Source: Takakia lepidozioides
Taxonomy: Eukaryota > Plantae > Bryophyta
Length of the DNA stretch: 64,000 nucleotides
Assembly (NCBI GenBank): GCA_030704615.1
Contig: CM060731.1
Span: forward strand, 22,444,001-22,508,000
Direction: 5' to 3'
Shown in pieces: positions 5,976 through 39,280 of the stretch; position 1 is the first letter of the stretch, and every line of letters starts with the position of its first letter. The notes under the pieces are model-generated. The model made no database searches and was not told the DNA's origin. It saw nothing but the letters and a program-made list of their open reading frames with translations. The translations under genes were made by a program, and so were the position numbers.

Positions 5976-5991
5976 TGGTGGAGATGGGGGG
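5976..5991 (+). promoter_or_regulatory. Primer-binding site, probably tRNA-Ala
   Basis: TGGTGGAGATGGGGGG directly after the repeat; matches the complement of the plant tRNA-Ala 3' end as I recall it (TGGTGGAGATGCGGGG) at 15/16. Confidence 0.75.
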
Positions 5992-6177
5992 CACTTTTGC
6001 ATTGTAATCTGATGGCTCGGGTGTTCTAGTGATGATAACCTAGGGTCGGTGTGGCTATGGTGCAACGACGGCAGTATGGGATATCTAGGAAAATGGCGGC
6101 TCAATCCACCCTGCGCAATCATTTATTCCACCCTGTGTATGTTGTTGCTGCTAGTTTTGTGTCTTCCTACCTTGTGA

Positions 6178-11962: not shown

Positions 11963-12315
11963 TTTTTGATCTCACTTGTATTATTGTAGAGGGCTGTCGT
12001 GTTGTTCTTACCCCTGGCCGTGCTGCATGAGTGCAGATCATAAGTTCCTATTTTTTGCTTTTAAAACTTGGCTATGTGCAGTGGTGGAGCTGCATCAGTT
12101 TGTTGTGGCTTGGCTTGACTTCACCAGCTAGCTTTAGTGTTTTTTTTTACATCTGATTGTGAGAGACGATGAGAGCTAAGGAACTGCTCTTATGAGCTTG
12201 CATCAATTGTATGGTTTGGGGTTTTTCCTGTTGGGGGTTTTGTCCTTCACCGCTCGCGCCTTGCATTGGTAAAATTTCCGAAGCTCGCTGGAGCTCACTC
12301 CTCCTGGCATGGGCG

Positions 12316-13551
12316 GGTCTTACATATGTAAGATGGAGTATTCCACCTGTTGCAGATGCTCTTCTGTTCGTAGGTTGGATGAAAAGCAAGGCGGTTGGTA
12401 TGGCTAATTAAATGTGCCTAATGTTAGCCAAAGGCCCTTGTCTCATTCCAACAGTAACCTCATCTGACGAGGTGGCTGCTGATGTGTGGGAGAAACTTAA
12501 AGAAATCCTAACAGCCAACAAGAGGCCACCATTTGCCATTCCAGATTAGCCCTTTCCTTTAATATAAAAAGTGGCTGGCTTATGCCAAACGCAAGATGTT
12601 TTGTGTGATGATAACAATGTACCTGGATGAGCCTGGTGTTTGGATGTGTTGCACTTGATGCCCCTGAATGTGATTTGATTGGCCCAGCTGTGAGGCTCCT
12701 CTAGCAAGAGATCCTTTGTCGCGCACCTCACTTCGGTAAGCTCCCCCCTCAAGTCATAGTTACTTGCTTTGATGCGCGCGCCTGACTCCCAACCTGGCCG
12801 CCGGGCCAACTTGGAGCTTCGGCTGCTCACCGGGACATAACGGTCCCCCTTTGTTCTCCCAAAGAACCCTCCACCGATTTGGAACTAGCGGGAATTCCCT
12901 TTGGTAGTTGGCAGTCCGGAACAACTCCCCACTCTTTGGTCGCTTTCCGGCTCGCTCGCTTACTCACTAGTTTTTGGTCACCAACGGGCTTGCACCGTTC
13001 TCGGGGATACTACTCCCTATATATACTTCTGTAGCTGTCCGCGGGGGTTTCACAACCAGCCATGCCATTTTATGACGAACCACCACGAAAACCCTCGACT
13101 CCCGGTGATGAGTCGCGGTGAGTCTTGGCCCACTCACCACGGCCCCTATGGACCGTGATGAGTCCCAAGACTCCCCACGATTCCCACCACGAGGTCTCCG
13201 CCCCCATGGTGAGTCCTATGCCACCCCCACTAAGTCCCGCTAAGCTACCACCACCCCTTGTGGAGCCACCCCCACCGCAACCCGGTGTGCGGGGCTCCAC
13301 CTAGTGAGCGCCTCCGCCTCCTTGAGTGCCTTGGGCACTCAAGGGTGCTTCAGCTCCCCATACCTATCGCTGCTGCTGCCCCCACCACAGGGGCAGCCCC
13401 TCATGTGTCCCGACCCCCTGCCCTCAAGGCAAAGGGCCGCGACATCCTTCCTATTTAGCTTGGCGTGCTTTACTGGCTAACTTCCGCGCTTCAGCGCCCG
13501 AACTCGTAGAAGATAAGGGAATATCCCCCGGGTAGAGAAATTGGTCTTACA
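12316..13551 (+). repeat. 3' repeat block of element B: b1 (ggtcttaca) - ta - A2 - b2 (ggtcttaca), with a nested solo LTR
   Basis: 12316-12324 is identical to 13543-13551; palindrome tcttacatatgtaaga at 12318-12333. Confidence 0.8.
12717..13444 (-). mobile_element. Solo LTR of the element A family, nested in the 3' repeat of B
   Basis: TGTCGC...GCGACA, 728 bp, flanked by 5-bp TSD TCCTT (12712-12716 and 13445-13449). Confidence 0.95.
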
Positions 13552-15482
13552 GGCTGACCCAGCAAGACACTGCTTTAATTTTTTTTTTTTAATATTGAGG
13601 TGAAAGGGGAGGAAGCCCATGTTATTTTCTTTTTCTTTTTTTAGAGAACAGTGGACAGAGGCCCTGAGAATTTATTAATAATTATTGAAGGGAGAAAATT
13701 AAACCCTTACATGCCCGAAGGCTGCCATGAGGCCTAGACACACGATGGTCGTGCACGACATACCTCTGAGTAGTAAACAAGAGACCAAGAACCCTCAACT
13801 ACTATCGAGTATTGAAAGTTAATATTATTAGTGGAAAATTGGGAGAGTGCTCGCAAATGACATTCCTTACAGAGGAGGGGAGTAAATTAATCTCCTTTCA
13901 GAGTTTTTTTTAAAATAAAATAAAAATAAAAAATTATTTCTTATTTTCTTTACGTTTAAAGAAAGGGAGTGGACACCCTTTCAGAGTTGTATTGTATACA
14001 TGAGTCATGATGGAATATAATACTGTACATTATTTTTAACTTTTACGTATTTTATGTTGAGACATGTATTGGCTAGATTCCCTCTACCTACCTTTTCGAC
14101 ATTTGGATGGACAGACGCTGGATGATGACAGTTGGAAAAGGGCTTGGATGAAACCAGCTAGAAACAATCTATTTTTAAACTAAGGATTGTCTTATATTAA
14201 CAGCTAGTTTATCTCTAAAATAGAATGAGGCGACGTCCTATCTGGACAGACACCCGGATGGAATCCAAATAACCAATCAGAGCTTGCCACTTGGTTAGAT
14301 GAGATTGTGGGCCTTCGTTTATAAAAGAGATCAACACGACGCTTAAGGCGGCGGTGTACTTTTGGTGTGGAAACCCTAGTGTACCTGTGTGAGAGTTTTG
14401 GATGAAGAAGGTGTGAGTGAGGATGTGCTGTTAACCCATGTGAATGATTATGACTCCTCTCCGTTGGATCCCCTATCTCGCTAGACCGAGCACACATCCC
14501 CATGATAGCTCAATACCCGTAGAGGAAGAGGAATAAGGGGGTGGGCGAGAATCTGGCTTTACAGAGAAACATAAAATATATCTATCTTTTTCTCTTTAAA
14601 GAACATAACCGTTTTGGATCTGCTAGATCCAATGGAGAATTAATGCCTATCCGAAGGTCGGAAGCTAGTTTAGCGTAGAGCAGGAATAGGGTGTCATAGT
14701 GACACGTCATCATCACCACGTCATCGTCGCTCAGAACCATCTATCAAGGTTATTTTCTCCTCTCGCTGTCGCCTAGGTGTTGCCCTTTTAGAAATTTAAG
14801 AGCAAAAAAAAAAACGGATGATGGTGGGTTCAAATCCCTCTACAGCGTGAGATGAGAGTCAGCAATTGCGCATGGAAAGCAGAAAATGTTTTGTGGTCTT
14901 CCTAGATTGTATGATGGGTTGAGGTGCGTAGCCACTCGTTTTTTCGAAAGTACGGCGGCCGATGTGAGCGAGATGGCATTGGAAAATCGTGTCTGCAGTG
15001 GTGTCGAGCGGAGGAGTGAATATGTGAAAGCGTTGTGGAGGTAGACACCAATTGGTGTGGGTAGGTTTCTGTTGCCTTCTCAAGATTTCAGGTTGCATGC
15101 CCATGCTTTCTTGATTGCTAGTAGGTTCTTGGGCTTGATGTGTAGTAGCAGAGAGCGTCAATACTTACCCCCAGCAACCGCCTTAGGCCTAGACGGCTTT
15201 GAGATGGATGAAATTAAAGAATACCAAAGCTGGTCTACTTACAAGCACTTTGCATTCCGGAACTTTGCTCTTGTGATCGACAGTTCTGAAGTAAGCTTGG
15301 GATTGTTGATTTAGTTCGACGAAAAGGCTGCACACACATTGATTCTTTGTTGGTGTGGGTTGCTATTGCAAATTGGATGTATTGAGGTGGAATTTGATAG
15401 TCCTTGTAATCAATCTGCCGTAACTTCCCTCACATTATCTGGCACGTTTTTGCGGATTCAATATGTTTTCCCTTGTGCAAAC

Positions 15483-16001
15483 TGTCGGCGCATACATATC
15501 GCTACACAACTACATCGCTGTCCAAACCACACCACATATATATGCACAATAAAGTAGTCTGCCACAATGATAAACAAGCTAAAAAGGACACACACTCCCA
15601 ACACAAGAAATATGAAATCCATCGCTATCACTCATTGAAACAGAAGTCGAGCCAGGGGCACCCCAAGCTATGGGGACTCCACCCCACAACAACTTGTACC
15701 CCTACATAAGCACACTCAAACCTAAACACATGCAGGAGCTCAGTCGCGCAGGCTCAACTCGAGAGAGATGAGCTACGTGACTGCCGCTCTCGTGAAGATA
15801 AGGCCGTTCAGGTGTCAAACTAAACTTGACACCTGATGTAACACTTGACCTAAATCCAAGTGTTAAATACAAATAACTAGCTTTATTCTAGTTCTTTTCA
15901 CACTGTGCTTATTTAACTTGACAGCTGTCGTGCGCATACATATCGCTACACAACTACATCGCTGTCCAAACCACACCACATATATATGCACAATAAAGTA
16001 G
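15483..16001 (-). repeat. 3' split-repeat block of C: B1 (15926-16001) - gc - A2 (15568-15923) - 10-nt spacer - B2 (15483-15557)
   Basis: Direct sequence comparison; junction palindrome gacagctgtc; G-tract (minus) at 16002-16007 abuts B1. Confidence 0.92.
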
Positions 16002-16257
16002 CCCCCCTAGCTGGTGGGTAGGTCCCTCTACCTCCAGATAGCTACAAGATGTAATAGCCATAGCCGTACTAAGTCCTCTATCACTGCCCCTATTGCACTC
16101 AAACTCTATAGACCAAGAGGCCGGGTACAAGAGTAGCCCCATTGTTAGTCGCTATCTTGCAATCTGTGAACTTGAGCCAGGACCTCGTGTGTTCAAGGTC
16201 TCCTAGTAGTTGGGCCTTGCGTTTCTTGTTAGCCTTCCATGGTTGTATCCACTCCCA

Positions 16258-17781
16258 CTATCCAATGCAATGTGGACATAACCAATCCCCATCCGGAACC
16301 ATCTCAAGAGGTGGAGTCAAGCATCCCATATGCCAACCTCTAGAGCATCGATCACACACCAGCATGGTGGCTGCCCCTTTAGCAGACCCACACAACATGC
16401 ACCTCAAACCTGCAGATACCACTGCCAGGTTTGGGTCAATCCTGCCATCGACATTCGGAAGGTGACATGGCGCACAATTACGCACATGGTCCTTCCAAGT
16501 TATGCCATCCCGACCCTCCAAGACCAAGACGCCTGAAGGCAAGACCTCTCGAACCCTCAAAATAACACGTCCTGCAGTCACATCCAGGGTCGTAGGAGCA
16601 GTCTGCTGCAGATAGACATAGTCACCAGGGTTGAATCTCCGAACCCCAGGACGATAGCCCCCACCACGTATGGTAGCATACCTCAACGTATCACGGTGTT
16701 GTGCAATGGCAAGGTTCTCGAAAGCCATGGGCATGACTCTCTTGAACAACTATGCACGCTGCTCACATGCACGTGCCCACACGTCCAGATCGTCAAGGTT
16801 AAGAACTGTAGCAGCTTCTCTGCGAATGGATGTAGGCAAATCCGGCTCTCGGCCAAAGAGAAGAAAGTATGGTGAGAAGGAGACAAGTGATGCTTGCTTG
16901 CTGAACCTGTAGCCCATGGCTAACTAGGGTAACTGAAGGTCCCAATCTCCTAGGTGTCCCTTCTGCAAACCATACTTGCGCAAACCCCTCTTTACTGTCT
17001 GAACAACTCTCTCTGCCAAGCCATCGGCCTCAGGATGATCCCGAGAAGTGGTGCGGTGGTCTATCAAGGCCTTGTCACACAAAGCCTGAAACTCCCCCAA
17101 GAACTCTCTCCCTTGGTCCGTGAGTACCTCAGCTGGAGCACCGAATCGGCTAAGCATACAATCCAAGAATGCATACGCAGCTCCCTCACTAGCCTTATCA
17201 GGCAATGGAACCAATTCAATCCACTTGGAGAAGTGCTCCACCATCACCAACACGTACTTGTTGTGGCGCATGGTCAGTGGCAACGGCCCTGCGAAGTCAA
17301 GACTCCACCTGTAGCCCAATCCCATGATCGGAAGAGGGTGCAATTGTGGAGTAGGGGCGTTGAATGAAGCACGCACCCTGTCACACACCATGCACCTAGC
17401 CACAAATTGTTGCACCTCTGTGTGCATACCACGCCACCAATACTGCCCCTGCAGTAGACTATGAGTGCGTCGCTCCTCATGGGCATGGCGCACTAACCGT
17501 GCCCGATGTGTTGGGTGAGGCACAATCCTCACTCGACCATCCTCCCACACTCGGAGCAGGTGTGTCCCCTCCCACTTGAACCTCTTGGCTCGTTGTAGGA
17601 TCCGATCCCTCTCCTTGGCAGTCACAGTGGCTGCCGTGTCTCCAGTGCGGAGGTAGTCCAACACAACTGAATCCTCATGTATATCTTTGGCGCCACCTTG
17701 CTCATTGCTGGCCTCAGGGTCCTCAGACACTTGATCTACAGTCATCCCTGTTGCAGGTCCAACCTGGCCTTCCGCTGCCAA
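16258..17781 (-). pseudogene. Element C integrase with C-terminal PHD finger (~16261-16404)
   Basis: CMVC zinc-finger half, LDFAGP, LTDQGREF, DGLAERVV; C-terminal CMLC-x11-CDRC-x4-H-x2-C-x14-CPHC = C4HC3 PHD. Confidence 0.9.
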
Positions 17782-19372
17782 GATACACAGAAATGCAGAT
17801 GCATGCCATCCGGCACCATCTCCTCGTCCGTCTCACCATGCCACCGAGCTCCAGTGTCATCTTGCTGGCTCGTGCATGGATTGCGACTCAACCCATCTGC
17901 ATTACGATTGACCAAACCCGGTCGATGCACCACCTGAAAGTCATACTCTTGAAGGATGAGTGCCCACCGTGCAAGCTTCCCCGTAAGCTTGTCTGACTCC
18001 ATCAACCACTTGAGTGGTTGGTGATCCGTGACAAGGGTGAAGAGATTGCCGTATAGATAGCACCTGAAGTGTGCCACGGCCCACACTGCAGCTAAGCATT
18101 CTCCCTCATATGAGCTATACTTAGACTCTGCAGCATTGTTCGAGCGGCTAGCATAAGCCACTACGAACTCTCTTCCCTCATCATCCACCTGTGTGAGCAC
18201 CGCTCCAAGCCCCAGCATGCTCCAATCTGTATGCAGCTGAAAAGGACGCCCCCTGATAGGTCGTCTCAAGATGGGCGCCGAGGTCAACCTCGCCTTGAGC
18301 TCTTGAAAAGCTTGTTCTTGCTCATCTTCCCACTGCCACTCCTGGTCCACCTTGGTCAGCTTGGTTAGAGCCTTTGCAATGGCACTAAATCCCTTAACAA
18401 ACCGTCTGTAATAGTTTGCTAACCCCATGAAAGCTCGAACTCGGCTCACATCCGTGGGGCGTGGAACCTGTGCAATGGACTCTACCTTAGTCTGCTGTAC
18501 CCCCAATCCTCCAGGATATATCATGTGACCCAGATACTCAATCTGGTTGTGGAAAAACTTGCACTTTCCCGGATGTAACTTCAATCCGTGCGTCCTCAAG
18601 CGCTCAAATACCCCCTGAAGGTGTCTCTCATGCTCCTCCACCGTAGCACTAAAGATGATGATGTCATCTATGTAGCACCGAGCAAACTCCACCCCTGCTA
18701 GAATCCTGTCCATGACTCTTTGAAACTCAGCGGGAGCGTTTTTAAGCCCAAATGGTAAGAACCGCCACTGGTATAGGCAATCCTTCCCGTGCTCATTGAT
18801 CCCCCAGAATGCCGTCTTTTGCTTATCCGCCTCCTTGATCGGCAACTGGTGATATCCGGATCGTAAATCCAACGTGCTAAAGACCTTGGAATGCCCAATG
18901 GCATCAAAGATCTCCTCTGGTGTCGGCATGGCATACCTATCGGACTTGGTCTGACGATTTACAGGCCGGTAATCACCGCACATACGTCTCTCCGTCCAAT
19001 TGCCATAGACATCCTTCTTAGCTGGCATCACTGTGGCTGAAGCATACTCTCCACCAGAGAGCTCCACCAAACCTGCCTCCCAGAGATCTTGAGTCCTCAT
19101 CTGAATCAAAGACCTCTCCATGTCACTGTATCTATAGGGTCTCCGAAAGATTGGCGTGTCAGTGGCCAACTCAATACGGATCTCTTGACCCTTCAGTGCT
19201 CCCAAGTCCTTCAAACTGAAGGCAAAGCAATTCTGTAAGCCCTCAGGAACCGCCGTATACGTCGTCTCTCTCCTCCGGTGACAATGGGTCCAATGTCAGG
19301 CTCCCAATTGTCCTCCGTAACTGCAACCTTAAGTCCAGTGGGCTTAGAGGTAGAGGACGCGTCCCGTGGTTG
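17742..19372 (-). CDS. Element C RT-RNaseH
   Basis: RMCGDYRPVN, LPFGLKNAPAEFQ, YIDD, LHTDWS, VTDHQPL. Confidence 0.93.
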
Positions 19373-19659
19373 CTATGCTGCAACCTCTTGAGCAGTACTC
19401 CCTTCCTGCTCAGTCAATGACAAGGCCTCATCCTGCCCCATCATCTCATCATTGAGAACCTCCTCATCCCGAGAAGAATCCCCAACCTCATCCATCACAG
19501 CTGCCTTGGCTGCCAACTCCCTCTGAACCTCGAGCACCTCCCACGTGTGCCATGGATGTCTACACCCCGTGGTCCTCACCGGCTCGCCCCCACTCGCTGC
19601 CTGTACCGTCTCGGTAGGCAGAGAGACCTGTCAAGGGAAGTGCACTCCGCACTCTACGT

Positions 19660-20640
19660 TGCTCAGCCATAGCCAAGCTGACAATCCAGGTCAAGCAATT
19701 GAGATCCATTGCTTGCCCCAACACCTGACGACGTGATGCCTCAGAAAGAGAAGGCACCGCCGTGGTCCCAGTGGAAAACCCCATAGCCCGCTCTCGCTCG
19801 TCGGCATTAGGCTCCACTAACTGCTGCAACTGAGCATCCCACAGGAGGCCAGGTCCACCATCCCGAAAAGCATGGGATCCTGGGAAGCTGAGCAGTGTAG
19901 GTAATGCTGCTCGTGGTTGACCCACCCTGTTGACCACTGCCAAAGGCGAACGGTCATCGTGTCTCACACGTTGAGACTGCTTCCTGTGTCCAAAATGCCA
20001 TCCACGGTGAGGTGTGCTGGCCGCTGCACCCCATCAAATGCACGCTTGAGCAGTGCGGGTGGCATCAAGTTAGTCCACCAAAGCCGTGGACGATGAGCCC
20101 GTGACCCCACTGCAGCTGCATCCAGCAACACTGCTGACCCAAGCCACGACCGGACTTGATGCACACTGGCCATCACCCTGGCCCGAGAATCACCCATCAG
20201 TGGTACATTCTCCAAGATGTATGCTGGAGATACAGCTTGATGAAGCTGCAAGCAGCGCAAAATCCGCACCATCTCCCAAAACAGACCCGTCCTCGAGTCT
20301 CGCAATCCATTGCCATGCCCGGCTGATGAATGCCCTTGGCAGGGCCAACCTGCCACTACCAGATCAATGGAGCCAACCTGCTCCAAATCCTGCGCCCCCA
20401 GCAAAGAAATGGCTGCTGGCCAGGAGAGGCTTGTGGAATCACGAACTGAGACACTGGCAACAAGTCAGGGTATTGCTGTACCAACTGAGCCAACATGGCG
20501 CGAGTGTGAGACGTCGTGCAGTCTCATCCCTCTCCACATACATGAACGTGGCGAACTAGTTGACACCTGCCTGTAGCACAACAGCCAATCGCGGTGCTGA
20601 ATCCCGCCCAACAAGTCCAGAAGGCAAATGCCTTCATCCG
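19660..20640 (-). pseudogene. C5 cytosine DNA methyltransferase domain of element C (frameshifted)
   Basis: ICLLDLLGGI, IDLVVAGWPCQGHS, YILENV, AHRPRLWW, ERERAMGF...VLGQAMDL. Confidence 0.9.
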
Positions 20641-20743
20641 CGATACTTCCACACAATAGGTGGTGTGGTATCCAATGGTGACAACTGAGGTGGTCCTGGT
20701 GCAATACCGCACTCTCCTCCTCTCCTGACGGTACAAAAGCTTC

Positions 20744-23579
20744 TTACCCAGGCTTGGTACACCCGTCGATCAGCAACCTGCTGCAAATCCTTGCTCGTAC
20801 CCCAAATGGGTGTGAGCACCATGGCAGGCAACTCCGCCATACCATGCATGTCATCCTCTGCTCTGCTGGAGGTGGCACATCCTCTGCATGGGCATTGCCT
20901 TCCAGCAACTCTCCAGGCCAAATAACTGCAGCTGTAAAGGCGGCTAGTGTTGGCATCTTGCCCCGTTGGGCAGCCGCTATACCCCCAATGAATGTCACAG
21001 GGAGCTGTGCACGGCAACCATCGCCTGACTGCCATCCAGCCTGTAGGATGCTGACTCCTCCCAAAAGTCCAGGGTGAAGCCCATGGGTATAACACTGCCC
21101 TACCAACGAGGACATCGTAAGAGACCGCGTCTGTCACAATGGCCTTGGCTCGCATTACTGAGCCATCGATATAGGATGATCCGGCTGCAGTCTAATGGCC
21201 AACTGATGCCGTGTCATGCCCCGAGCCTGCTCTGATCCTCCCAGAGATGTCTGTATCTGGAAAGGACAGGCTCCATATCCGCCTCCATGAGGCCCAAACC
21301 TGCAATAGCAGCTCTGCCCAACATCAGTGGCTGAGCTCCCGAGTCCAACAAGACCCGCAGTGGCCGGTACTTCTTACCTGCCGGTCCACTCAAGTGAAAA
21401 TGCATCCCTGGTTGTCTAACAAGACAACTCCAGGTGTCACCATGGCGCGCTCAAAGGCTGGCCTAGCTGGCAGCTTCGTCAACCTGACAGCTGCAGCTTG
21501 CCAGGGCGCAGCCGTGGCAGTCTTGACCCTAAAAGAGGATCCCTCTGCCACTACACCTTCCACTAACTCCGCAGAAGATGAAGTGACCTCCCCACTCTCA
21601 CAGAGTGTTGCTGCTAGTCGGAACACTGCAGCTGGTCTCACCCCGGCGTCGCAATCATGTTGCCGAGAACAGTGGGGCCGACACACAGAGGTGGCTGCCC
21701 CCAATAACACACCGGCCGCACTAGCCTTGGCAGCAGGTGTCAGTGCTGCACGTGTAGCTCTCCCCAATGGCATAGAAACCTCCGCCTCGGTAACAGTCGG
21801 GCGAGAACTAGGTGCCATGGATGGCGTCGATACACTCTCCGCCAATGTGAATGACTGAGGAAGCCTCGCCTGACGGCTTGCCTCCCCACGCTGTGGATCC
21901 AATTCCACCTCTGCACCTCGTGGCTCAGGAACTCGTGCTGCTCCTCGAGTCACGGCTGCAGCAGACTCCACCTGCTCTAGTGGTAGTGCTGCTCCGCACA
22001 TAAATCCCATGCCTCCTATATCTCTCCCTCAGGAGCAGGAGGAGGTGGACCATCCGCCTGGGAGCCGGTACGCCTGAGCTATAGCCATGGCAGCGAGCCT
22101 CTGCTCTAGCTGCTGAAGCCGATTGGCCATGCCTTGGTCAACACCCTGACCTCCGCGTCCTTGGCCATGTTGAGCTTGCCCTTGGCCTGCACCTCGTGCC
22201 CGACCACCTCGTCCTCTCTGGGCTGGTCCACCTCGCCCCCGGCCACCATTGTTCCCTTGGAACTGGCCTGGGCGCAACTCAGGATGCAAGTCATAACACT
22301 GGGCATCTCCATGCCCATACTTGCCACAATGCCCACACTGCAACTGTGCAGGCTGTGCTTGTGCCGGCCTTCTGCCACTCTCTGGGCAATCTCTCTTGAC
22401 ATAGGGTCCTCCACATGTCCAACATATCACCCCTGGTTGCTGTTGGCCTGCAAAAGATGCCACGGGCCTCTGCACCTGAGGTCCCCTGTAAGCTCCATGG
22501 AACTTGGGTTGGGAAACTTGCCCCCCTGACCACGCTGCTGGGCAGTACCTGTGCCTTGGGCTGGCAGCTGGCTGCGCCTCGTGCAAGCATGTCCTTGCCA
22601 AATCCAATGGTGACAACTCGCTCCTCCACCATGTTGAGCTCAATCCGCTCAGCCAGCAGAAACACATCTGCTAATGTGGGTTGGGCTGCTTGTAACAAGG
22701 TTGCATCTCGCACCCTTCTCTTGAGCTCCTTGTCCAGAATTCCATACCAAAACTGGATTGCCTGAGCTTCAGTAACCCCTTGGGTCACACTTATCAAGCG
22801 CCTCATACGAGTGTACGCCTCTCGCAGGCTCTCACTGGGTTTGCGCTGGAAGTCTTGCAAACTTCGCAGCTTCTCTGTCCGTACACCTTGGTAGTTCCTC
22901 CGCAACTCCTGAAGAACTCCACCACCGGGTTGAATCTAGGCACATGTGTTGTAGTCATGGCAGGAGGAGTAGTAGCACCTTTTGAACTGGTACCACCTAC
23001 AGAAGTACCAGCACTACTTGCTCCACTACTAGTGCTGGCAGTGGGAGCTATTGGTACTGATGCAGCTACTGGTCGCGTCGTGCCTCGAGTAATGGAGACG
23101 TAGTCAGGTGACCAATACATCCTCCACTCCTCAATATCTGCTTCATGTCCTCGCCTGAACTCGTGGTAATCGTCCATAGGCGGGCCTTCCAAATGCTGGA
23201 ACAGTCCCTTCCACGCCATGAATGGAGTGAATAGCTGTGGATTGCGCATCTGCTGCAAATCACACCAGCTATCGAACTCCTGGATAAAATCATCCAACTC
23301 GATTGTGCCCACAGCTCCAGAGTACCTACGAGGCCCCTTGGTAGCTCCATACATCTCCTCCATGTCGTCCCACAACAATGGCGAATGAAACTGCACACCT
23401 GTTGATGAAGCCTCCGAGTCTGTGTCTGACTCTACACTAGTTGAGGGTGGAGGTGAAGGTGGTCTGAAACGAACACCTCGTCTGGTGAACCTACTCTCAC
23501 TACTACTGCATGTAGCCGTACTCCCCTCAGAACTTCTGGGTAATTCCGTGATGACACTCACAATGTGCACCTCCCCCAC
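20744..23579 (-). pseudogene. Element C gag and protease (frameshifted)
   Basis: Homologous to D ORF 59182-61455; CGHCGKYGHGDAQC knuckle; VLLDSGAQ. Confidence 0.88.
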
Positions 23580-25220
23580 GTGACACTATAAGGCTCTATT
23601 ACTAATTCTAATAGTGACATGGGTAGGCACCTGTTGCAGTTTAAGGGTCATATTCCAATGGCTCAGGACACCTTGCACCTGCATCCACCGCAAGAACTCC
23701 TATGGTTGGCTGGTCATCAACCCAGCCTCACCATAGAAGAAACACTGGTGGTCTTGCTGGTCATCACTCCAGCCTCACCACCGACAGCATACTCTAGGAT
23801 TGACCGGTGATCAAATCCGGCCTAATCCCTATGAAAGCAAGCGCCCACACAAAACCAACATGGCGCACAGTCAAGCATGCAGGTGTTGGGGGGGATCCAA
23901 ACACAAGAAATCAAAACATCAACACCCCCACACCAAAATCCAGCAGCAACGCTGTGATCCTGCAGAATATCCCAGCCCAAAACCCCGGACTGACTGGCCT
24001 CCACCAAGAGAGGCTTTGGCAACTACAAGTATAAGGTAATGAAAATAGTACAGAGATGGAGGGGAAGAATAGAAGCCCGACCCAGCAAGATCTAATCCTG
24101 ATCTATGCTATCAACTGCCAGACTTCTCTCAAAGTGCCTCGCTCTGCATGATGGTAAGGTGTAGGAGGTATATCTATGTCCAGAAACCTGCCACTAACCT
24201 TGTCCCAAGCTACAGTAGCTCGCTCTAACCAACCCTCCTCCTCTTTGCCAAGTAGAGACAAAGCAACACTCTGCTATCTCCCGCTCACTGAACACTAAAG
24301 AAAACAAAGGTAGGGTCTGATAGTCTCTCAACTCGAAAGCTTTGAGACGGTTGCGGGTGTCCTCATTGCGAATGACTGCATCTCCTTCAAACAGAACAAA
24401 CTTGTCCTCGCTAATGACCCCCGCTCGTGGTTGCCTGTGCAGAGCGTGTCCTGCTGCAACGCTGTCTGATTGCACAAACTTGTGTAGCTCCTGCTCCTCT
24501 GCTCCAGTACACCACAGCCTTGTGGCTGAACACCTTGGTCCCCGGGGCTGTCTTTGGCTGTGTTCCAAGCCTAGCTTTCACCCACTTTGGTATTTCACTT
24601 ACAGCTGCAGAACTGCTGGCTCCAACAGAGTTCTGACTGTCCAAAGCGATATTGAGGCCCTCAACGCCAACTACAGCAGTCTGTTGTCTACTGCTAATGC
24701 CTGACTCCCAGTATGCAATCAACTCGTCCAACTGTTCTCCACTCAAATCAGTCTGAGTTCCTTGGGAAACATAAATCCTGTCCCTTGTGTGCACAGGCTA
24801 AGAGAAGAGACCTGCCCTTCAATTACGTCCTCATTTCCCCCAGCCATACAAGGAGTACATCCACAGATTTGTCTCTCATATAGACCAGCACAGGTTCTAG
24901 AAACAGAATTGTGGATCTTTCATGGCACACTCACACTCTAAAAATTCCATAGATTTTTAGCAGAGTCCTAAAAACAAAAACCAGTTCTAGATTGGTAGAT
25001 TTCCCCTTTCTGCAGCTATCCCCTCAAAAACTGGGTCAAACAGAGTCCATTTGACAAAAATATGACCAATTTGGCTTTAAATCATTTAAATTAGATCAAA
25101 ATGTCCTTTTTTATTTTTTATTTTTAAGGTTTTCAAATTTAAAAATTTAAAGTTACACCCAAACTATCTGGTAACTGGTTCCCGGTTCCCTACGTTCTAT
25201 ATGGTTTCCTAGGTTCCCTG

Positions 25221-25240
25221 GCCACGTGCCCTATAATTCA
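25221..25240 (+). promoter_or_regulatory. Possible G-box plus TATA upstream of the captured SHC fragment
   Basis: gcCACGTGcccTATAATtca, followed by a GA-rich 5'UTR-like stretch. Confidence 0.4.
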
Positions 25241-25653
25241 CACCTTGCTCCAGTCTTCTGCATACCGAGAGTGAGAGAGAGAGAGAGGGAGGGAACTGTG
25301 GCACTCAGTAGTGTCTTGTTGTGAAAGAGAGTGGATTCCGTGATTGCTTGCAGGCTTGCGCACCAAGAGAGGGGGAGGAAAGACATGTTTATGGACATGT
25401 TTATGGACGCCATGTACAGGCAAGGGGTCACTCACAGTCTGTTCGAGGCCTTGGTGGCTAACGATAAATCACTGAGGAGGATTACCAGCGGGAAGCACTG
25501 GACTTTGTGCGGGAGCTTGCGGGTCCCCGGCCCATTCCAGTTACGGGGGAGAAAGCCCTGGCTCCTGAATCGCCCGTCTATCCCCAGCGTAGCTCGGCTC
25601 CGCCGTTCCCAAACCCGTCGTCTCCATCCTGCAGCTGAAACTCTAGCACTTTT

Positions 25654-26601
25654 GTGAATGTGAACTGCTTACTGCAGGGAAGTGGGTGTATGGGAGCATT
25701 CGAGTCCATGGATGCAACACCGCTTGATCAGGTCATCAACGATGCAATTGACTGGAGTTTCCGTAAGCAGAATCCAGAGGGCTATTGGGCGGGCCAGGTC
25801 AAATCAGGCTGTACAATGGAAGCGGAGTGGATTCTGGCTATGCATGTCCTGGGCGTTACAGATGACCCAAAGAGAGAAAAAGTCGTGCGTTGCATTCGGA
25901 GCCTGCAAAGAACTGACGGATCCTGGGACACTTATCATGAAGCTCCTGCAGGTGACCTTAGCACCACCGTCGAGTGTTATGTGGCCTTAAAAGCGTCGGG
26001 ATCCCAACCCAATGAAGCATCCATGGTAGCGGCTCGAAAATGGATTTCTGAACATGGTGGACTTCCAGCGACCCGCGTGTTCACTAAAATTTGGTTAGCT
26101 CTGGTGGGAGAATGGTCATGGGATGATGTCCCTTGCGTGCCCCCAGCAATTATCTTCCTGCCACAATACTTCCCGTTCAATCTTTACGACTTTAGCTGCT
26201 GGGCAAGGGAAACAGTCGTCCCCCTGACCATCCTTTCTGCTCGGCGCCCAGTACGTCCGCTGCCGCTCGACTTTTGTTGTCATGAGCTCCATGAACCAGA
26301 GGACATGAAACAACGTCAAAGCAAGAAAACTACTCTTTCAAATCTCGCCAGACATGTCTGTGAAAGTTTATTCCTCTACTTCGACAAGTTCCTCATATGG
26401 TATGGTAAGAGCCGTTCCAAGCCTGGCCGTGAGGTGGCCATCGTATGCTGCTTGGCCTGGATCCTCCGGCGACAAGATTCTGACGGCACTTGCTGTGGTG
26501 TACAACCTCCTTGGGTGTACTCGTTGATGGCGTTGAGCTATATATCTCCTGCTTACTGTAGGGAATCAGGCCAGAGTATGTTCGTCGTTCGTTTCTGCTG
26601 A
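25654..26601 (+). pseudogene. SHC: Squalene-hopene cyclase, N-terminal portion, truncated before the DXDD catalytic motif; inside element C, antisense
   Basis: QNPEGYW...TMEAEWIL, QRTDGSW, DLSTTVECYVALK, RVFTKIWLALVGEW, FSCWARET.VPL, QDSDG..GVQPPWVYSLMAL; homology ends ~26540. Confidence 0.9.
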
Positions 26602-27210
26602 ATTGGTCAGAAGACAATTCCAAGCCCGGATCCTAGGGCGCATACAATGCAGCAACCCCAAGAACGGAAAGCGCAAAGTTCTGCTGTTGGCGAGGCTCCA
26701 TAGCAACCATATACACGGAACTCCGTCCTCTGCGCATTGCGAAGGGGATGCCGCTTTTCTGCTCCATAGCCCTGCCCCTTAACCCGCTGCATGACGCTCT
26801 CGCATGATCAAAGCAAATGATTGACAAAGAAGCTGAAGCTAAATTTTGGTCCAAGACCGACCCCGATACAAGAAACAATTGCAACAGCAGGCTCCTCTAT
26901 AAGCTTACTGGTGAAACGATCATCCAGCTTCAAGGATCACGCATAGGTGCCAACTAGCATTTGCTGCTGCATTTTTAAGTATCTCCTTGTGTACTCCAAA
27001 GCCTCTAGTGACTTGATAGCTTCAGCGACTGCAATAACAGTGGCGGCTCCGGCATCGTCATCCTCCAGGCGTTTCAGGCACGCTGAATCTTGTGGTCACA
27101 TTCAATGATATGCTTCTCAAACTAAGCACTACTTATACACAAGTTATCTTGCAAGTGCTAACCCTCAACTCCTACCTTGCACTCACAGGTAAGAGAGCAT
27201 CTCTCTCGAG

Positions 27211-27566
27211 TGATAAACAAGCTAAAAAGAACACACACTCCCAACACAAGAAATATGAAATCCATCGCTATCACTCATTGAAACAGAAGTCGAGCCAGGG
27301 GCACCCCAAGCTATGGGGACTCCACCCCACAACAACTTGTACCCCTACATAAGCACACTCAAACCTAAACACATGCAGGAGCTCAGTCGCGCAGGCTCAA
27401 CTCGAGAGAGATGAGCTACGCGACTGCCGCTCTCGTGAAGATAAGGCCGTTCAGGTGTCAAACTAAACTTGACACCTGATGTAACACTTGACCTAAATCC
27501 AAGTGTTAAATACAAATAACTAGCTTTATTCTAGTTCTTTTCACACTGTGCTTATTTAACTTGACA
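27211..27566 (-). repeat. 5' terminal repeat A1 of element C
   Basis: Minus strand TGTCAAGTT...TTTATCA; 354/356 identical to 15568-15923. Confidence 0.95.
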
Positions 27567-28563
27567 AAACTGTTGTAAGTGTTTTTGGATTAAACCATAT
27601 TAAACACACCTGAAAACAGTTGGGTTTCAGTGACATGTGTGACCTCCAACTGCTGATCAAGACAAATGAAGGTTCATGTTGTTTGACCAAGAGCGTGCTT
27701 GCATTGTGATGAGTCTGGTTGTTATATATTGGTTATGTATCCACCTGGGCTAGAAAACACACTGGTAGTGGCTCTAGGTCTTGCTGTGGGCTTCAACTGC
27801 CCAAAATCCAAGACTGGTGTTGGAACCAGTCGAAGTTCCCTGTGGACTACCAAGACATTTGAGGTTGTTGTGTGACGGACAAAGTGGTGGTTAGGCCTAA
27901 TTGAGTTTTCCAGATGAAACTAATAAGCCCTCCTCTGTGCCAGATCTGTGGTGGACATAGCTGGCTCGTGCGAGCCCAACGGGCAGTTATATCGTCGTTA
28001 TGTACATTTCCTCTCTTCATGGGCATCCTCCAGCCACTGATGTGCCACCTATGAGATATGAGTGGTTAGCAGCCTGTTTGGCAGTCAATTGCCGATTTAG
28101 GGCACTGATTATCCCAACACCTATGAAAGCGGTGGGGTCTTGCATGGGCTTCGTATCTTAGCAGGAATGCGGTGGACAGCAACAGTTTCTGGTCATGTTG
28201 ACCTTGCAGATGCTGGACTGGATTGACGGCTTTGGGTATAGCAAGCTGGCAAGCTGATGAGTATCTGATGCGGCAGTGCAGTGAGCCTTTCGTTCTGGGA
28301 AGTTCAATCTTTCAGGTGCCCTAATGCAGAGAGGGCCTTGCCAGGTTACCGGCAGGGGCAGTAGGGGAACAATCCATGGCACTTTAGTGAAGAAGCCTAT
28401 AATATATGCGGTACATCAGTCCACAGTCACAGAAGCATGTGGTCGAATGTGTTGGCAGTCTCGGCCGCGAAATACGTGCAGGCATAATAGTGCTGGAGGA
28501 TTCCAGTCTGGCAGAGGTTCCAGGAGTATCATTCACATCAAGGAACAAGACCTTATAAAGCTC

Positions 28564-32119: not shown

Positions 32120-35100
32120 CAGAGCTGGCATGAGTTTTTTAAAGATCCTTCACGACGGTGGGACAACCACAATCGCAAGGTGTGGCTTTTTCTTAATGTA
32201 CGAGTGAAGAAGTTTGTCCATCCTGCAAATGTGGGCTCTTGGCTCCTGTTAGTACCATGATTTGGTATTCTTCCTGATGTTTACAAGGTTCTTGGGAGAG
32301 TCAGCTTGGTCATAGCAAGCCGTGTTTCAATCTCTGCCTGCTCAGCTGCACCGTGGTGGTTCTCACAGACCAATCTGACATTACCTGACTACAGACACAG
32401 AGAGAAGCAGATGCAATTCAGAATTGGAACTACTGTAATAAGTAGGGTTGGGGTGTTTGCTGGAAGAACTTCACGCCGTCAGTGTCAGCTGCTAGCAGCA
32501 AGGCTGAGGATGTATTCGTGATTTGTACACAGGCAGGGATAGCTGAAGGACCAGGGATAGAGGTCCAGATTCATCCAAGAGGGCCGGATTTCAAACACAA
32601 GATTACTTCTGATTCCCTGTGGATCAATAGCTACAAGAAATCTGCGTGGGTAGATGGTCAACTAGAAACAGCAGCGGCAGCAGCACAATTGATAGAACAA
32701 GGCACTTCTAAATGAAGGCACCTTCTTCAACACCTTTCAGCCTGTTTTTCCTTATCAGAGTCGTCCCTAAATTTTCATGTTGAATTCTGCAAGATAGCTC
32801 ATTGGTGGATCTATGGTGGTTTTGGAGTGATTTTGACATGTTACTGCCAATGTGGCAACAGGAAAGTATCGAAAAACAGATAACAGAGAAGAGGAGAAGC
32901 TCTGGAATGAATACGTTTCCGATCCCAGTCAATGGTGGAACAATAGGGGCAAAAAGGTGAATGCCTGTTGGAAGCAGACGCAAGTCAGCATAGGAAGTAG
33001 TGTGATAAGTAGGGTTGGGGTGTTTGCTGGAACAATTCTAGGCTGTCATTGTCAGCTGCTAGCAGCAAGGCAAGGATGTATGCATGATTTGTGCAGAGGC
33101 ATGAATAGCTGAAGGAGCAGGGATAGACCGTGGGTCCAGATTCATCCAAGAGGGCCGGACTTCAAGCTCCAGCTTACCTATGATTCCCTGTGGAAGGATA
33201 ACTACAAGAAACCTACATGGGTAGATGGTCAACTGGAAGCCGCAGCAGCAGCGGCTTGATAAAATCAGGCACTGCTAATCAAGGCACCTTCTAACACATT
33301 TCACCCTGTTTTTCCCTCTTATCAGAATCGGCCCTAAATTTCCATGTTGAATTCTGCAAGTTAGCTGGTTGAGTGAACCTTTGATAGTTTGGAGTGACTT
33401 TGACTGATACTGCCAATGTGACAACAGGAAAGTATCCAGAAACAGGTAACAGAGACGAGGAGAAGCTGTGGAATGAATACTTTTCTGACCCCAGTCAATG
33501 GTGGGACAATCGAGGCAAAAAGGTGAATGCCTGTTGGATTACAGAGAGTAGCGGATGCAATTGAGCATAGGAACTAGTGTGATAAGTTGAGTTGGGTGTT
33601 TCCTAGAACAAATATAGGCTGTCATTGTCAGCTGCTAGCAGCAAGGCAAGGATGTATGCATGATTCTTGCTGAGGCATGGATAGCTGAAGGAGCAGGGAT
33701 AGACTGTGGGTCCAGATTCATCCAAGAGGGCCAGATTTCAAGCACAAGATTACCTATGATTCCCTGTGGATCAATAGCTACAAGAAACCTGCATGGGTAG
33801 ATGGTCAACTGGAAGCTGCAGCAGCAGCAGCACAATTGATAAAATCAGGCACTGCTAATCAAGGCACCTTCTTCAACACATTTCACCCTGTTTTTCCCTC
33901 CTATCAGAATCGGCCCTAAATTTCCATGTTGAATTCTGCACCCAACAGGTTGCTGAAGCCAGGCATCATCTCAAGCTTGAGAGGTGTATGCAAATCAAGT
34001 GGGGATTTATACTCACGGTCTCTGGTTTTCACAGCTGTATCAGGGGGGCTGGACATAGGATCCCAAAATTCTCAGAATCTGGGGCAAACTCCTGAATAAG
34101 AGGGACACTGTATAACAATTCAAGGCATGTGAGCGAAGGAATTATTTTGCTTACAAGTGATATCTGGTAGGTGGATGCCACTGTTCTTTGCAGGGATTTA
34201 GTTGAATAGTGTTACCTCTCACAGTCCACTGCGTGCCTAATAATGACAATGCCTTACATGGAGGATGTTGAAAGTGATCATGTCACTAGGTTTTCTTAAG
34301 CTGCCACCCAACTTGATAGGGGTCAGGGAGGCAGAAGAAAGATAAGTTATGATATAAGTAAACCATGTTCTGTTGTCTTGCAAAATTCTTGAGTTCAAGG
34401 TTGTGATGGGAGGATTTTCACAGATCATGTGATGAAACTACTTTCATAAACGGGTGTGAATCTAGTTTGGAGTGACTTTGACATGATACTGCCAATGTGA
34501 CAACAGGAAAGTATCCAAAAACAGGTAACAGATTGTACTCATAAGACGTTGTTTGCCGTAGCCTTGTGGCCATTGACCCCGCGCCCAGTTTGAGCGGGAA
34601 CAAAAGGGACAGAACCTACCTCTGTCAGGGGCTGACGTTGGTAGTAAGACTTACCTCCATATAAAGAATTAATCCGGGTTTTCCAGATATCCTCTAGAAA
34701 TCCCTTCACACAAGCATCAATCTGCTGTGTGTGATTTGCCCAAAAACTAGGCCTCAGGAGGGCCTGGGCTTTTGGCTCAGCCTCGAGACTTTCAAAGTTG
34801 GTAAACAGGGGTACAGGCACAATTCCCTTAATAGATTTGAAGAGAGCGTCTCTTTGGTGAGAGAACCCCGGACAGTGTATCAGAAAATGAATACTGTCTT
34901 CAGATTGCCCACACAACGGGCAATTGCACTCTCCCTTTCCTCTCTGCTTCTGTTTGCTGTTCAAAGGTAGGCTTCCTGCCCTGAGTTTAAATTTCAGTCT
35001 AGTGCCGAGAGTGGGTAGACCCTTGAGGTCATCCAAGATGTCCTCCCCCATGTCACAGACTGGAAACAAGTTCAGGGAAGTTTTCTGCCTAACTTCATTT

Positions 35101-38100
35101 TCATCAGACAATCTCATGGCAACAGACATGGCTGAGGACACTACAGCCTCTAAGTCAGATTTATCCAGCAGGGTCAAGACTTGCGGATCCAGGTCCAGGT
35201 CCTTGAGGATCTCTTCTACTCTCTTCTGCCAGGACTTAGCCTGTTTGACAGGGCGGTCCTGTTTCCAAGATATAGAGTTGATTAACTTAGGATATCTGGT
35301 GTTGGGCATATGTTGCAGCTGACCCCACCATCTGACCTTGAATTCATCTCGTCGGGAGCTTAAGGACGGAATGCCAAACTCACCCCGAACAGCCACATTG
35401 GCTGTTTTGGAGCATGCTGACATACACTCCTTAAGCACCCCCACTTGAATGGATTCTAGAGACTTAGCCTGGTTGGAGTTATCAACCCATATAGCAGATC
35501 CGTACTCCAAGGCAGGTCTAATAACGTGACAAAGCATGGTTTTCTTAACCTCAGAGTTGACCCCTCTGCAGTGGAAAAATTTAGTGAGCCCCAGAGCTTT
35601 GCCCTTGCCAGTTTGAACAACTTTCCGGATATGTGCATCCCAATTACAATTGGAGGAGAACTCAATGCCCAGGTAAGTGTAGGAAGGGAGGACCGGGATC
35701 TCTTGGCTACCCCACTGCCACTTAAGATCACTTCCTCCCTCTCCTCTGTCGTTGAATGCTACCACTGCACATTTGCTGACATTAGCCTCTAGCCCCCAAA
35801 GATCAAAGTATCTCTTCGCGCAATCAATCAACTCCTGGAGATTGGTTGGAGTCTCCCCTATGCCTGCGAAGTCATCCGCAAACATAAGGGCTGGTATGGT
35901 GGTATCACCCACCCTTAACCCAAATCCCTCACTTTCCACATCCTCGAGGAGTTGATTGATGAAAACATTGAAGAGCAGAGGGGAGAGAGTACATCCTTGA
36001 GCTACACCTTGGTCTATGTCAAAGAAGTTGGACTTCTGTCCGTTAACAGTGACACAGCTTTTGGTGTGAGCATACAAGTTGTGGACAACTCTCCACATCT
36101 TTCCCTTGATCCCACAAGACCAGAGGTGGAACCATAGGCCATCCCTGTGTCATAAGCCTTTTTGACATCCAGGAAAAAGACATAAGTGGGTTTCCCTTCT
36201 TTTTTCCTTCCCTGGATAATCTGGCTTAGAGTGAAGATATGATCCACACAGCCCCTGTTTCGCCGAAAGCCAGCTTGGCCTTCGTGGAAACAACCTCTAG
36301 ACTCCAGATCAACCTCGAGACGAGTACTTATAACTCTGCAGAATGTCTTGCCAACAGCATTGAGGAGCGTGATGCCACGGTAGTTCCCCGGTTCTTCTCT
36401 GTCACCCTTCTTGTATAGATTGACAATGACCCCCTGTCGCCAGCGAAAGGGGATCATTTCAGTCTTCCAGATAAGGTTAAAGAGGAGAACTAGGGCCTCT
36501 ATCATGGGATCGCCACCGTGCTTGATAAGCTCGTTGACAATACCATCAGGTCCACTAGCTTTATATCCATTTAAATGTTCAATTGCTTCCACAATCTCAG
36601 AAGAACTAATGGGAGCATTATAAGCCATTGAAATATACTCCAGTTCATCAGGGCTGTTTTGAATCATAGGAACAGTTTTTCCAACTGTGTCCCTCCATTC
36701 AGCAGAAGACCCCTCACTGTTAGACCTAGAAGTTCTGCCAAGGATACTGTAGTGAGTTTCAAAGGTTTTGACAATGTCAACCGATGAAGTCACCACTGCA
36801 CCTTTAGTAGTCTTCAGCGCTTGTACTTGCTGACCGTTTTTCGGTTTGTACAAACGTTGAAGGGCCAACCAGAATTTCTTGTCATTACCACCATGGTGGT
36901 TTGAGTTTATTTCACTGTATAACTTGTCCCAGTATAATTTCTTCTGAGACCTAACAAGCTGATTGATATCTTTACGGAGCTGGTAGTACCTCGCCCACAA
37001 TTCTCTGTTGGTTTCCAAATTGCAGCACTCTTTATAGAGGGCTCGTCTCTCAGCTATCTTGAGTTTAATCTCATTAGTCCACCAATTAACTGCTCTACCG
37101 CAGACAATTAGTTTCCTCCCAATGATCTTGTCAGCCACGGAGGAAACGAAACTCTCCCAAGAGTCCACTGCTCTTTCGACTTCATTTCTTGCGTTAACAG
37201 AGCGTGACTGAAGTTCTTGGAGGGATTGGACAAAATGAGGGAGAGCCTCTTGCAAGGCCTGGACGTACTCAGCCTTGACCTCCTCATTGTGGAATTTTTC
37301 TATGCGCCACTTCCGAATCGAACGTTTCACAGATCTCTTGGTGGTGGGAAAACACCTTTTGATCTCAGTCCAAACCAGGAAGTGGTCAGAGGTACCAATA
37401 TCAGTTCTGTCGATCAACACATTGGCACACTGGGGTAACAAAATTTTGTCCATTATGATATAGTCCACAATGGAACGTTCCCCAGTTTGGGGTTTCTCAC
37501 GAGTCCACTGCACTTGGTCACCTCTTGTCCTGTTATTCAAGGTCAAAAGCTGAAGCTCTTCTAGACAGTTAATTAACCGTCTGCCATTAGAATTCAGCTC
37601 GTCCTCACCAAAAGGTCCAATGATATCGTCTTGATGGATCCCTTTGCCCACCCGGGCATTGAAGTCCCCCAATAGTACCACCTGACCTTTGGCAAGGAAC
37701 GAAGCACAGTCCAGCTTTACATCTTCGAAGGCCTTGTCTGCGTCAGCAACTAAGGGTCCCCTCTGTGGGCATGTAAACACAACCAACAAAGAGGTCCTTT
37801 GTACTCATGCCGTCCTTCAAATTCAGTTTTAGCCAGATACTATGCTCGTACCTCAAACCCTTGTTGATAATTTCACAATTGTCAAACAAGAAATCACGGA
37901 CAAAGAATCCAACCCCTTTTTGACCGCGTTTGGCAGAGGCTGCCTTGAGAGTACACATCTTACCTGCCCATTTATAACCAATGACATCTCCAACCAGTTT
38001 ATCCGACGTTTCCCATGTTTCTTGCCCAGCACAGATATGAATATCATTAGTCCGAAGAACTTGTCCCACTTCAAGTTGTTTCCTTTGGTTGGTCAACCCT

Positions 38101-39280
38101 GAGAAGTTGTTGAAAGTGGCCAGCCGCAAGCCAGCCCTTTGCGTGTGAATTGTTTGTCGTCTAGGTAGCTTGTGATTGCTCCTGGACGGCCAACCGTTCT
38201 GCAAAGGGGGGACAGTTACCCCATGTATAGATTTTGCTCGTCTTGTGTAAACTTTGAGAATTGGTAAGCCATTCAGGGTACCAAATCTTTCAGTTACACG
38301 ACAGAGGTAACAGAGATGAGGAGAAGCTGTGGAATGAATACTTTTCTGGCCCCAGTCAATGGTGGGACAACCGAGGCAAAAAGGTGAATGCCTGTTAGAT
38401 TACAGAGAGTAGCAGTCAGCATAGGAACTAGTGTGATAAGCTGAGTTGGGTGTTTCCTAGAACAAATGTAGGCTGTCATTGTCAGCTGCTAGCAGCAAGG
38501 CAAGGATGAATGCATGATTTGTGCAGAGGCATGGATAGCTGAAGGAGCAGGGATAGAGTGTGGGTCCAGATTCATCCAAGAGGGCCAGATTCCAAGCACA
38601 AGATTACCTATGATTCCCTGTGGATCAATAGCTACAAGAATCTTGCATGGGTAGATGGTCAACTGGAAGCCGCAGCAGCAGCGGCACAATTGATAAAATC
38701 AGGCACTGCTAATCAAGGCACCTTCTTCAACACATTTCACCCTGTTTTTCCCTCTTATCAGAATTGGCCCTAAATTTCCATGTTGAATTCTGCAAGTTAG
38801 CTGGTTGAGTGAATCTAGTTTGGAGTGACTTTGACACGATACTGCCAATGTGACAACAGGAAAGTATCCAAAAACAGGTAACAGAGATGAGGAGAAGCTG
38901 CGGAACAAATACTTTTCTGACCCCAGTCAATGGTGGGACAACCGAGGCAAAAAGGTGAATGCCTGTTAGATTACAGTGAGTAGCGGACGAATTCAGCATA
39001 GGAACTAGTGTGATAAGCTGAGTTGGGTGTTTCCTGGAACAAATGTAGGCTGTCATTGTCAGCTGCTAGCAACAAGGCAAGGATGAATGCATGACTTGTG
39101 CAGAGGCATAGATAGCTGAAGGAGCAGGGATAGAGTGTGGGTCCAGATTCATCCAAGAGGACCAGATTTCAAGCACAAGATTACCTATGATTCCCTGTGG
39201 ATCATTAGCTACAAGAAACCTGCATGGGTAGATGGTCAACTAAAGGCAGCAGCTGCAGCGGCACAGTTGATAAAATCAGG
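32120..39280 (+). repeat. Five tandem two-exon modules (~570 bp) encoding OSB-type PDF motifs
   Basis: A exons 32120-32179, 32862-32956, 33428-33522, 34507-34532+38315-38383 and 38860-38954 end AAG|GT (e.g. LWNEYFSDPSQWWDNRGKK). B exons start CAG|ATT at 32569, 33140, 33716, 38570 and 39147 (e.g. IHPRGPDFKHKITYDSLWINSYKKPAWVDGQL). Confidence 0.88.
34533..38304 (-). mobile_element. Non-LTR retrotransposon (APE-RT LINE, RTEX/L2-like), frameshifted
   Basis: APE (GQETW, LLGDFNARVG, IVDY, SDH), RT (QGCTLSP, FADD), C-terminal CPLC...HFLIHC; 10-bp TSD aggtaacaga (34523-34532 and 38305-38314). Confidence 0.93.

Follow-up and report, generated by a model that had tools for sequence, protein, structure and literature searches.

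The window analysed here, 64,000 nucleotides of Takakia lepidozioides contig CM060731.1, carries two elements of Gypsy type, C and D: they combine Gag, protease (PR), a cytosine methyltransferase, reverse transcriptase (RT), RNase H, a DDE integrase and a PHD finger with repeats laid out as A1-internal-B1-A2-B2. C spans 15483-27566 on the minus strand, is flanked by 4-bp duplications AAAC and reads, in order, A1, primer-binding site (PBS), long leader, Gag, protease-like region, C5 cytosine methyltransferase, RT, RNase H, DDE integrase, PHD finger, polypurine tract (PPT), B1, A2 and B2. D has only its A1 repeat inside the window; B1/A2 junctions are present in D-family contigs. The features that make up the two elements are:

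27211-27566, minus strand: repeat A1 of C, 356 bp, starting TGTC, with the promoter and the predicted R and U5; 99.4% identical to 15568-15923 (2 mismatches in 356)
25639-26601, plus strand: squalene-hopene cyclase N-terminal fragment in the 5' leader of C, antisense to C (PF13249, E 1.9e-90)
22029-23585, minus strand: Gag of C, in pieces, with zinc knuckles visible (D counterpart at 59164-61455)
19560-20464, minus strand: C5 cytosine methyltransferase domain of C, in two frames (PF00145, E 4.5e-13)
17742-19295, minus strand: RT and RNase H of C (PF00078, PF17917, PF17919)
16924-17832, minus strand: DDE integrase of C (PF00665, E 1.2e-14; PF17921)
16258-16749, minus strand: integrase C-terminus of C with the PHD finger (PF00628, E 2.4e-11)
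16001-16009, minus strand: PPT of C, directly before B1 and at the same position in related loci
15926-16001, minus strand: repeat B1 of C, without the ~13 nt at its start that B2 and other copies have
15920-15929, no strand: palindrome GACAGCTGTC at the B1/A2 junction of C (CA-GC-TG), a predicted integrase attachment site
15568-15923, minus strand: repeat A2 of C, from comparison with A1
15483-15567, minus strand: repeat B2, the 3' end of C, ending GACA; contig depth goes up ~1000-fold at its edge
15479-15482, no strand: target-site duplication AAAC, copy 1, 4 bp, flanking C
27567-27570, no strand: target-site duplication AAAC, copy 2, 4 bp, flanking C
55761-56087, plus strand: repeat A1 of D, 327 bp; contig depth rises at 55761 and halves after 56090
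59164-64000, plus strand: Gag-PR-methyltransferase-RT of D, cut off by the window edge; 86% identity with C over 5.4 kb

Since A1 and A2 differ at only 2 of 356 bases, C is a young insertion, though its reading frames are broken. The squalene-hopene cyclase fragment in its leader is likely captured host sequence. At the integrase C-terminus of C, no match to a chromodomain or to a Tf2-type SH3 domain was found at E up to 0.1; the Retrotrans_gag match in D is weak (E 0.0046). Contigs of the C/D family have their edges at the B2 end and at the A start, D-family contigs carry B-type sequence before A, and other copies in the contigs have the B1 start that C lacks; contig depth served here as a locator of ends only, not as a measure of copy number. 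Contigs of one run, guessed to be RNA, end near 55945-55985 inside A, which would fit a poly(A) site; a single guessed-RNA study is no evidence.

The D leader holds tandem arrays of 51-nt and 10-nt units (57517-58466), where C has unrelated sequence, and D is inserted beside degenerate TTAGGG-like repeats (55650-55760) that are themselves moderately repeated in the contigs. Tandem repeats of ~570 nt (32397-39286) lie on both sides of a LINE (34539-38399, minus strand), apparently inserted into the array, and an 882-aa PPR-DYW open frame with a 303-nt repeat unit (39120-41768, plus strand) is a likely organellar RNA-editing factor.

Complementarity at the end of A1

Where would reverse transcription of such elements begin? 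A sequence-only reading of this DNA had placed, right at the end of A1 in both C and D, a stretch complementary to one inside the repeat, and the complementary stretches proved exact at all four coordinates. The features concerned are:

27198-27210, minus strand: predicted PBS of C, directly after A1, without TGG
27401-27412, minus strand: predicted self-primer of C, about the first 12 nt of the transcript if it starts where predicted; 12/12 pairs with the PBS, fold z -6.7
27438-27444, minus strand: TTATCTT box at the TATA position, non-canonical, 32 nt before the predicted primer and common to D
55911-55922, plus strand: predicted self-primer of D; 12/12 pairs, fold z -7.4
56088-56099, plus strand: predicted PBS of D, with no variant inside it among the contig variants listed

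Read directly from the window, 27198-27211 is CATCTCTCTCGAGT and 27400-27413 is ACTCGAGAGAGATG; the corresponding stretches of D are ATCTTTCTCGAGT (55911-55923) and ACTCGAGAAAGAT (56087-56099). On the sense (minus) strand of C, the 27198-27211 stretch adjoins the A1 end (27211), and its partner occupies A1 positions 154-167 of 356: A1 positions 154-166 pair without a mismatch with the 13 bases 3' of A1, and the pairing takes in the final A of A1 as well. In D, the bases after A1 form a 12-base perfect pairing with its own A1. Measured by the self-priming criterion (the bases immediately 3' of the 5' repeat complement the repeat over 10 bp or more), C has 13 bp and D has 12. Neither element has a TGG start within 0-5 nt after A1, in agreement with the claim that a TGG-type PBS is absent. 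Chance was gauged by shuffling the LTR 5000 times and counting runs of at least 12 pairs anchored 0-5 nt after A1: such a run arose once for C (maximum 12; observed, 13) and zero times for D (maximum 11; observed, 12), which argues against a fortuitous match. The ordinary Gypsy element at 1-4485 has no self-complement. Its PBS is presumably of the tRNA-Met type.

The claim that both partners change together between C and D is correct as far as it goes: the joint change is real, but it amounts to one pair, at PBS position 8 (G:C vs A:U). With the A repeats identical in 218 of 373 columns globally and 69% identical over the best local match, this single compensatory pair is by itself weak evidence, and a covariation test needs other families. 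These came from a metagenome, of which 11 of 64 parts yielded the sample, 80 of at least 569 loci covering two RT subclades; three distant loci in viral contigs were left out. Most of the 80 loci have methyltransferase, integrase or PHD matches in the same order as C, and many metagenome loci show the A1-internal-B1-A2-B2 layout. After duplicates had been dropped (L004 of L002, L037 of L036, L069 of L067), 27 distinct A1 ends were scored, two of which, L036 and L050, were set by hand and are ~1 base off; the 27 are not independent but represent three families.

The comparison across copies, which the sequence-only reading had named as a check, came out in its favour. Three unrelated primer words, those of C/D, of the L002 family and of the L021 family, each pair with their own repeats: pairing is 12/12 within a family and 3-6/12 (Watson-Crick pairs) between families. 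The best 12-mer pairing after A1 reaches at least 11/12 at 17 of the 27 ends; among the control words, 1080 of each kind, 1 internal and 5 shuffled ones score as high. At a threshold of at least 10/12, the counts are 20 of 27 vs 14 and 64 of 1080, respectively. At A2 ends, which are followed by B, pairing runs are 6 or shorter in 18 of 18 cases. With duplicates included, 13 of 30 A1 matches qualify under the Neumann 2019 self-priming criterion. Every family has its PBS immediately after the last base of A1/A2 homology and its B repeat starting from the PPT; the opening six bases of the PBS are palindromic in C/D and the L021 family.

Within families, two-sided changes occur in L006 (+13, +14), L009 (+1, +4), L033 (+2), L061 (+5) and C/D (+8); several of these are C>T/G>A and could be separate deamination events. 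One-sided changes are seen in L021, L059, L075 and L078, several G:U pairs occur too, and 7 of the 27 ends score below 10/12. The one-sided changes and low-scoring ends are read as decay after insertion, which is expected of repeats diverged by 8-20%, though this is not proof. L013 represents a further family (PPT-B1-A2-B2, with a decayed palindrome and no A1 in the contig), and a search for usable repeat ends in L017, L076, L018 and L019 found none. In L002 (1830-1865) and related A repeats, the partner region is itself a near-perfect hairpin.

Predicted transcript start and self-primer

L021-family elements carry a TATA-type box 32-35 nt before the first base of the partner, a distance at which a transcript start is expected. 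Mean pairing in this family is 1.0 at PBS position 12 and drops to 0.2 at position 13, as would be expected if a primer of 12 nt started with the first base of the transcript. At the TATA position, C and D read TTATCTT and have no canonical TATA. In the fold of RNA from their predicted start, primer and PBS form a helix that is connected to an R stem and a U5 stem (z -6.7 in C, -7.4 in D); the fold is weak in L064 (z -2.6) and L002 (z -1.4), so the three-stem structure is put forward for C/D only. Complementarity passes the TATA-predicted start, reaching ~23 nt in the L002 family and, in D-family contigs, taking in a few additional bases: either the starts differ, or another process extends the match. 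Primer length appears to be family-specific, at 12 nt in the L021 family, 12-17 in C/D and up to ~23 in the L002 family.

Taken together, these patterns make it likely that C, D and their relatives self-prime in the manner of Tf1, with their own RNA in place of a tRNA. Transcription would start at the partner inside A1; the 5' end of the RNA would fold onto the PBS; RNase H, whose domain is found and whose activity is presumed, would free the first ~12 bases as a primer; and ordinary LTR-type copying would then yield a linear cDNA, [B A]-internal-[B A]. The primer could also be supplied in trans by a second RNA, including short RNAs started in A2. By its landmarks, B+A behaves as one LTR: the PBS abuts the A end, and B starts at the polypurine tract. 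Tf1 itself primes with its first 11 bases, RNase H cutting between bases 11 and 12 (PMC7175516; PMC4600332), and is reported to need flanking RNA structure around the primer (PMC7175516).

Could the pairing serve another end? It might be a conserved long-range RNA stem, acting in packaging, dimerisation or translation control, with priming left to, for example, a tRNA fragment. The whole leaders of C and D do fold strongly, the PBS words of two families open with palindromic hexamers, like dimer signals, and complementarity in the L002 family exceeds 12 nt. However, one arm begins precisely at the A end, which sets the terminus of the cDNA, and the second arm at the start predicted from the TATA box, and minus-strand DNA must begin where A1/A2 homology ends, so that a PBS at that very point fits a primer role. 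Against a tRNA fragment, at least half of the positions in the PBS word change from one family to another, more than a fixed host tRNA could keep pace with, the TGG is missing, and 26900-27700 has no Rfam match at E up to 1. Because the pairing is kept with different letters, starts at the end of A1/A2 homology and has a TATA-spaced partner, priming is favoured over a generic stem; the stem, which the sequence-only reading had kept as its alternative, is much less supported and we consider it improbable. That the words are GA- or A-rich and that some copies pair poorly would suit a chance or low-complexity by-product, an idea contradicted by the shuffle and position controls and by the recurrence of three different words; it can practically be dismissed.

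Split repeats and integration

If self-priming yields a linear [B A]-internal-[B A] molecule, how does a chromosomal A1-internal-B1-A2-B2 arise? The elements end in TG/CA, and the palindrome at B1/A2, GACA-GC-TGTC, matches both element ends. Palindromic B/A junctions are found at 15920-15929 of the window and in L002, L015, L023, L027, L068 and others; among 23 such junctions, the palindrome is exact in 6, altered only by C>T/G>A changes in 13 and otherwise changed in 4. The 4-bp target duplications are exact in 7 of 14 copies with both ends, have one mismatch in 5 and two in 2, a count that leaves out L009, whose B2 is truncated, and L031, whose A1 start was misplaced. The predicted linear cDNA of the L021 family does not end in TG/CA; the integrated ends correspond instead to the two halves of the B/A junction. 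At the A2/B2 junction, the end set by the PBS and the end set by the PPT meet flush; 5 of 13 L021-family junctions deviate slightly. The view of B as a long target duplication or chance flank was rejected, because other families have the same layout and, apart from it, a 4-bp duplication.

A route that would connect these landmarks has two steps: the two cDNA ends are joined, which would create the A2/B2 junction, and the DDE integrase then cuts the CA-GC-TG palindrome of the upstream repeat, which would give the chromosomal A1-internal-B1-A2-B2. Whether end-joining and a cut at the upstream palindrome do generate this layout we rate as an even bet. Precedent exists for the enzymology: foamy virus integrase cleaves palindromic LTR-LTR junctions to processed ends (PMC1180852). 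The foamy virus palindrome, however, arises from end-joining, whereas in the clade of C the predicted site is permanent and lies inside the repeat, away from the cDNA ends. Tf1 cDNA often retains PBS and PPT tails (PMC11042837) and, as a speculation by analogy, an internal attachment site would sidestep such tails. One observation counts against the model: B is found upstream of A1 in 0 of 27 A1s, although the joined circle has two B/A palindromes; the downstream palindrome should serve equally, and the model gives no reason for the one-sided choice of the upstream one. Copies with A1-internal-B1 and target duplications but without A2-B2 (L006, L044, L059, L061) are predicted alike by B1/B2 recombination and by cutting both palindromes.

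The same A-ORF-B-A-B layout is known from elements that work quite differently. Ngaro, PAT, VIPER and TATE likewise have A1 at the 5' end and B1-A2-B2 at the 3' end (PMC6681497) but integrate by a tyrosine recombinase, whereas the clade of C has a DDE integrase and 4-bp duplications. Could C nevertheless be rebuilt as Ngaro, PAT and VIPER are, a full-length RNA ending in B2 being copied from its 3' end, with B1/A2 as the bridge between the ends and the self-complementary site being vestigial or of secondary importance? The identical layout (PMC6681497; PMC5890265) would be accounted for, and so would the use of the upstream B/A junction alone to form element ends. Yet the ends are TG/CA with 4-bp duplications, and the ORFs scanned contain an rve integrase and no match to a tyrosine recombinase. 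In every family, the position of the A end follows the PBS and that of the B start follows the PPT, and the A2/B2 deviations of a few bases in the L021 family look like those of newly joined ends. Such rebuilding is therefore very improbable.

Relatives and known systems

In a quick RT tree of 50 rows, C falls into a clade of 36 rows with a support of 100, which excludes the sampled plant chromoviruses; no named Tf1 or Tcn1 is among the rows. C and the L002 family on the one hand, and the L021 family on the other, lie in two different deep, well-supported subclades of this clade. The closest named RTs come from Calypogeia (81%), Marchantia and Riccia, followed by Klebsormidium, Closterium, Volvox and Haematococcus. 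Judged by sequence alone, these relatives, the squalene-hopene cyclase fragment and the PPR-DYW frame would make a liverwort-like host likely. The Klebsormidium RTs fall inside the 100%-supported clade of C and may or may not be KnitGypsy-Dnmt3 itself. This Klebsormidium nitens element shares with C and D the Gypsy domains, a cytosine methyltransferase in Pol and DIRS-like repeats (de Mendoza et al. 2018, PMC5890265), and C has the corresponding traits: Gypsy RT-RH-IN plus methyltransferase in Pol and complete A-ORF-B-A-B repeats. The passages of that paper that describe KnitGypsy-Dnmt3 give no priming or integration mechanism and do not mention a PHD finger (PMC5890265). PHD-bearing Gypsy elements are known in Chlamydomonas (10.1101/2022.06.16.496473; PMC8557442), REM1 among them (via PMC2774666); another of them, Gypsy-7a_cRei, is naturally active in a laboratory strain.

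The closest mechanistic parallels lie in fungi. Tf1/Tf2 of Schizosaccharomyces pombe and Tj1 of S. japonicus likewise have a PBS directly after the 5' repeat, complementary to a stretch within the repeat; Tf1 has been demonstrated to self-prime, and the same has been proposed of Tj1 and the Tf1/sushi group (PMC4600332), whereas for the clade of C/D we infer it. Tf1/Tf2 and Tj1 are ordinary two-LTR elements; the C/D clade differs in its split repeats, in encoding a methyltransferase and a PHD finger, and in a predicted primer of ~12 nt or longer. The Tf1/sushi-like self-priming put forward by the sequence-only reading is therefore supported as a mechanism, by pairing in three families, by its position at the A end and by TATA spacing, but not as a group assignment: with a PHD finger, no chromodomain match, 4-bp duplications, no paired terminal LTRs and an RT clade apart from the sampled plant chromoviruses, these are not typical Tf1/sushi or Tcn1 elements.

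Among plant elements, the survey in PMC6317226 predicts self-priming for Tcn1 (83%) and TAR (89%) only. Tcn1 chromoviruses and TAR are, like C/D, plant LTR elements in which self-priming is predicted by a sequence criterion. In REXdb, Tcn1 has a chromodomain (100%), 5-bp duplications (100%) and ordinary LTRs (PMC6317226), whereas C has a PHD finger, 4-bp duplications and split repeats; TAR is a copia element, C/D are Gypsy. Phygy and Selgy, the REXdb Gypsy elements of non-seed plants, have 4-bp duplications as C does but tRNA-Trp and tRNA-Ala sites, respectively (PMC6317226), in contrast to C/D, which lack a TGG-type site.

The broadest reading is that a green-lineage Gypsy clade, reaching by RT from liverworts to algae, self-primes, has moved its attachment sites to an LTR-internal palindrome and integrates routinely from end-joined cDNA, a proposal that could prove wrong as readily as right. 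If it is true, the DIRS-like A-B-A-B layout is that of an ordinary LTR element circularly permuted by a DDE integrase, and the clade becomes a model for the origin of split direct repeats. The landmarks would explain the structure given in the 2018 figure legend, with the PBS setting the A end, the PPT the B start and the palindrome the element ends, and they yield a testable replication cycle, with integration normally proceeding through joined cDNA ends. Self-priming in Gypsy has been treated as a mark of Tf1/sushi-Tcn1 and used to support horizontal transfer of Tcn1 into plants (PMC6317226); a second self-priming plant Gypsy clade, without chromodomains, would weaken that argument and add another or older origin. 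LTR finders that require two terminal LTRs would miss these abundant elements. The literature searched holds no report of self-priming or of an integration model for the C/D clade; Repbase, theses and subscription papers lie outside that search, and prior art there is possible.

The window holds a further Gypsy element at 5505-13542, with a dUTPase before the RT (PF00692, E 1.9e-9); its 3' LTR is split by a solo LTR (12717-13444) that belongs to the 1-4485 element. In the RT tree, the 5505-13542 element lies outside both the PHD clade and the chromoviruses.
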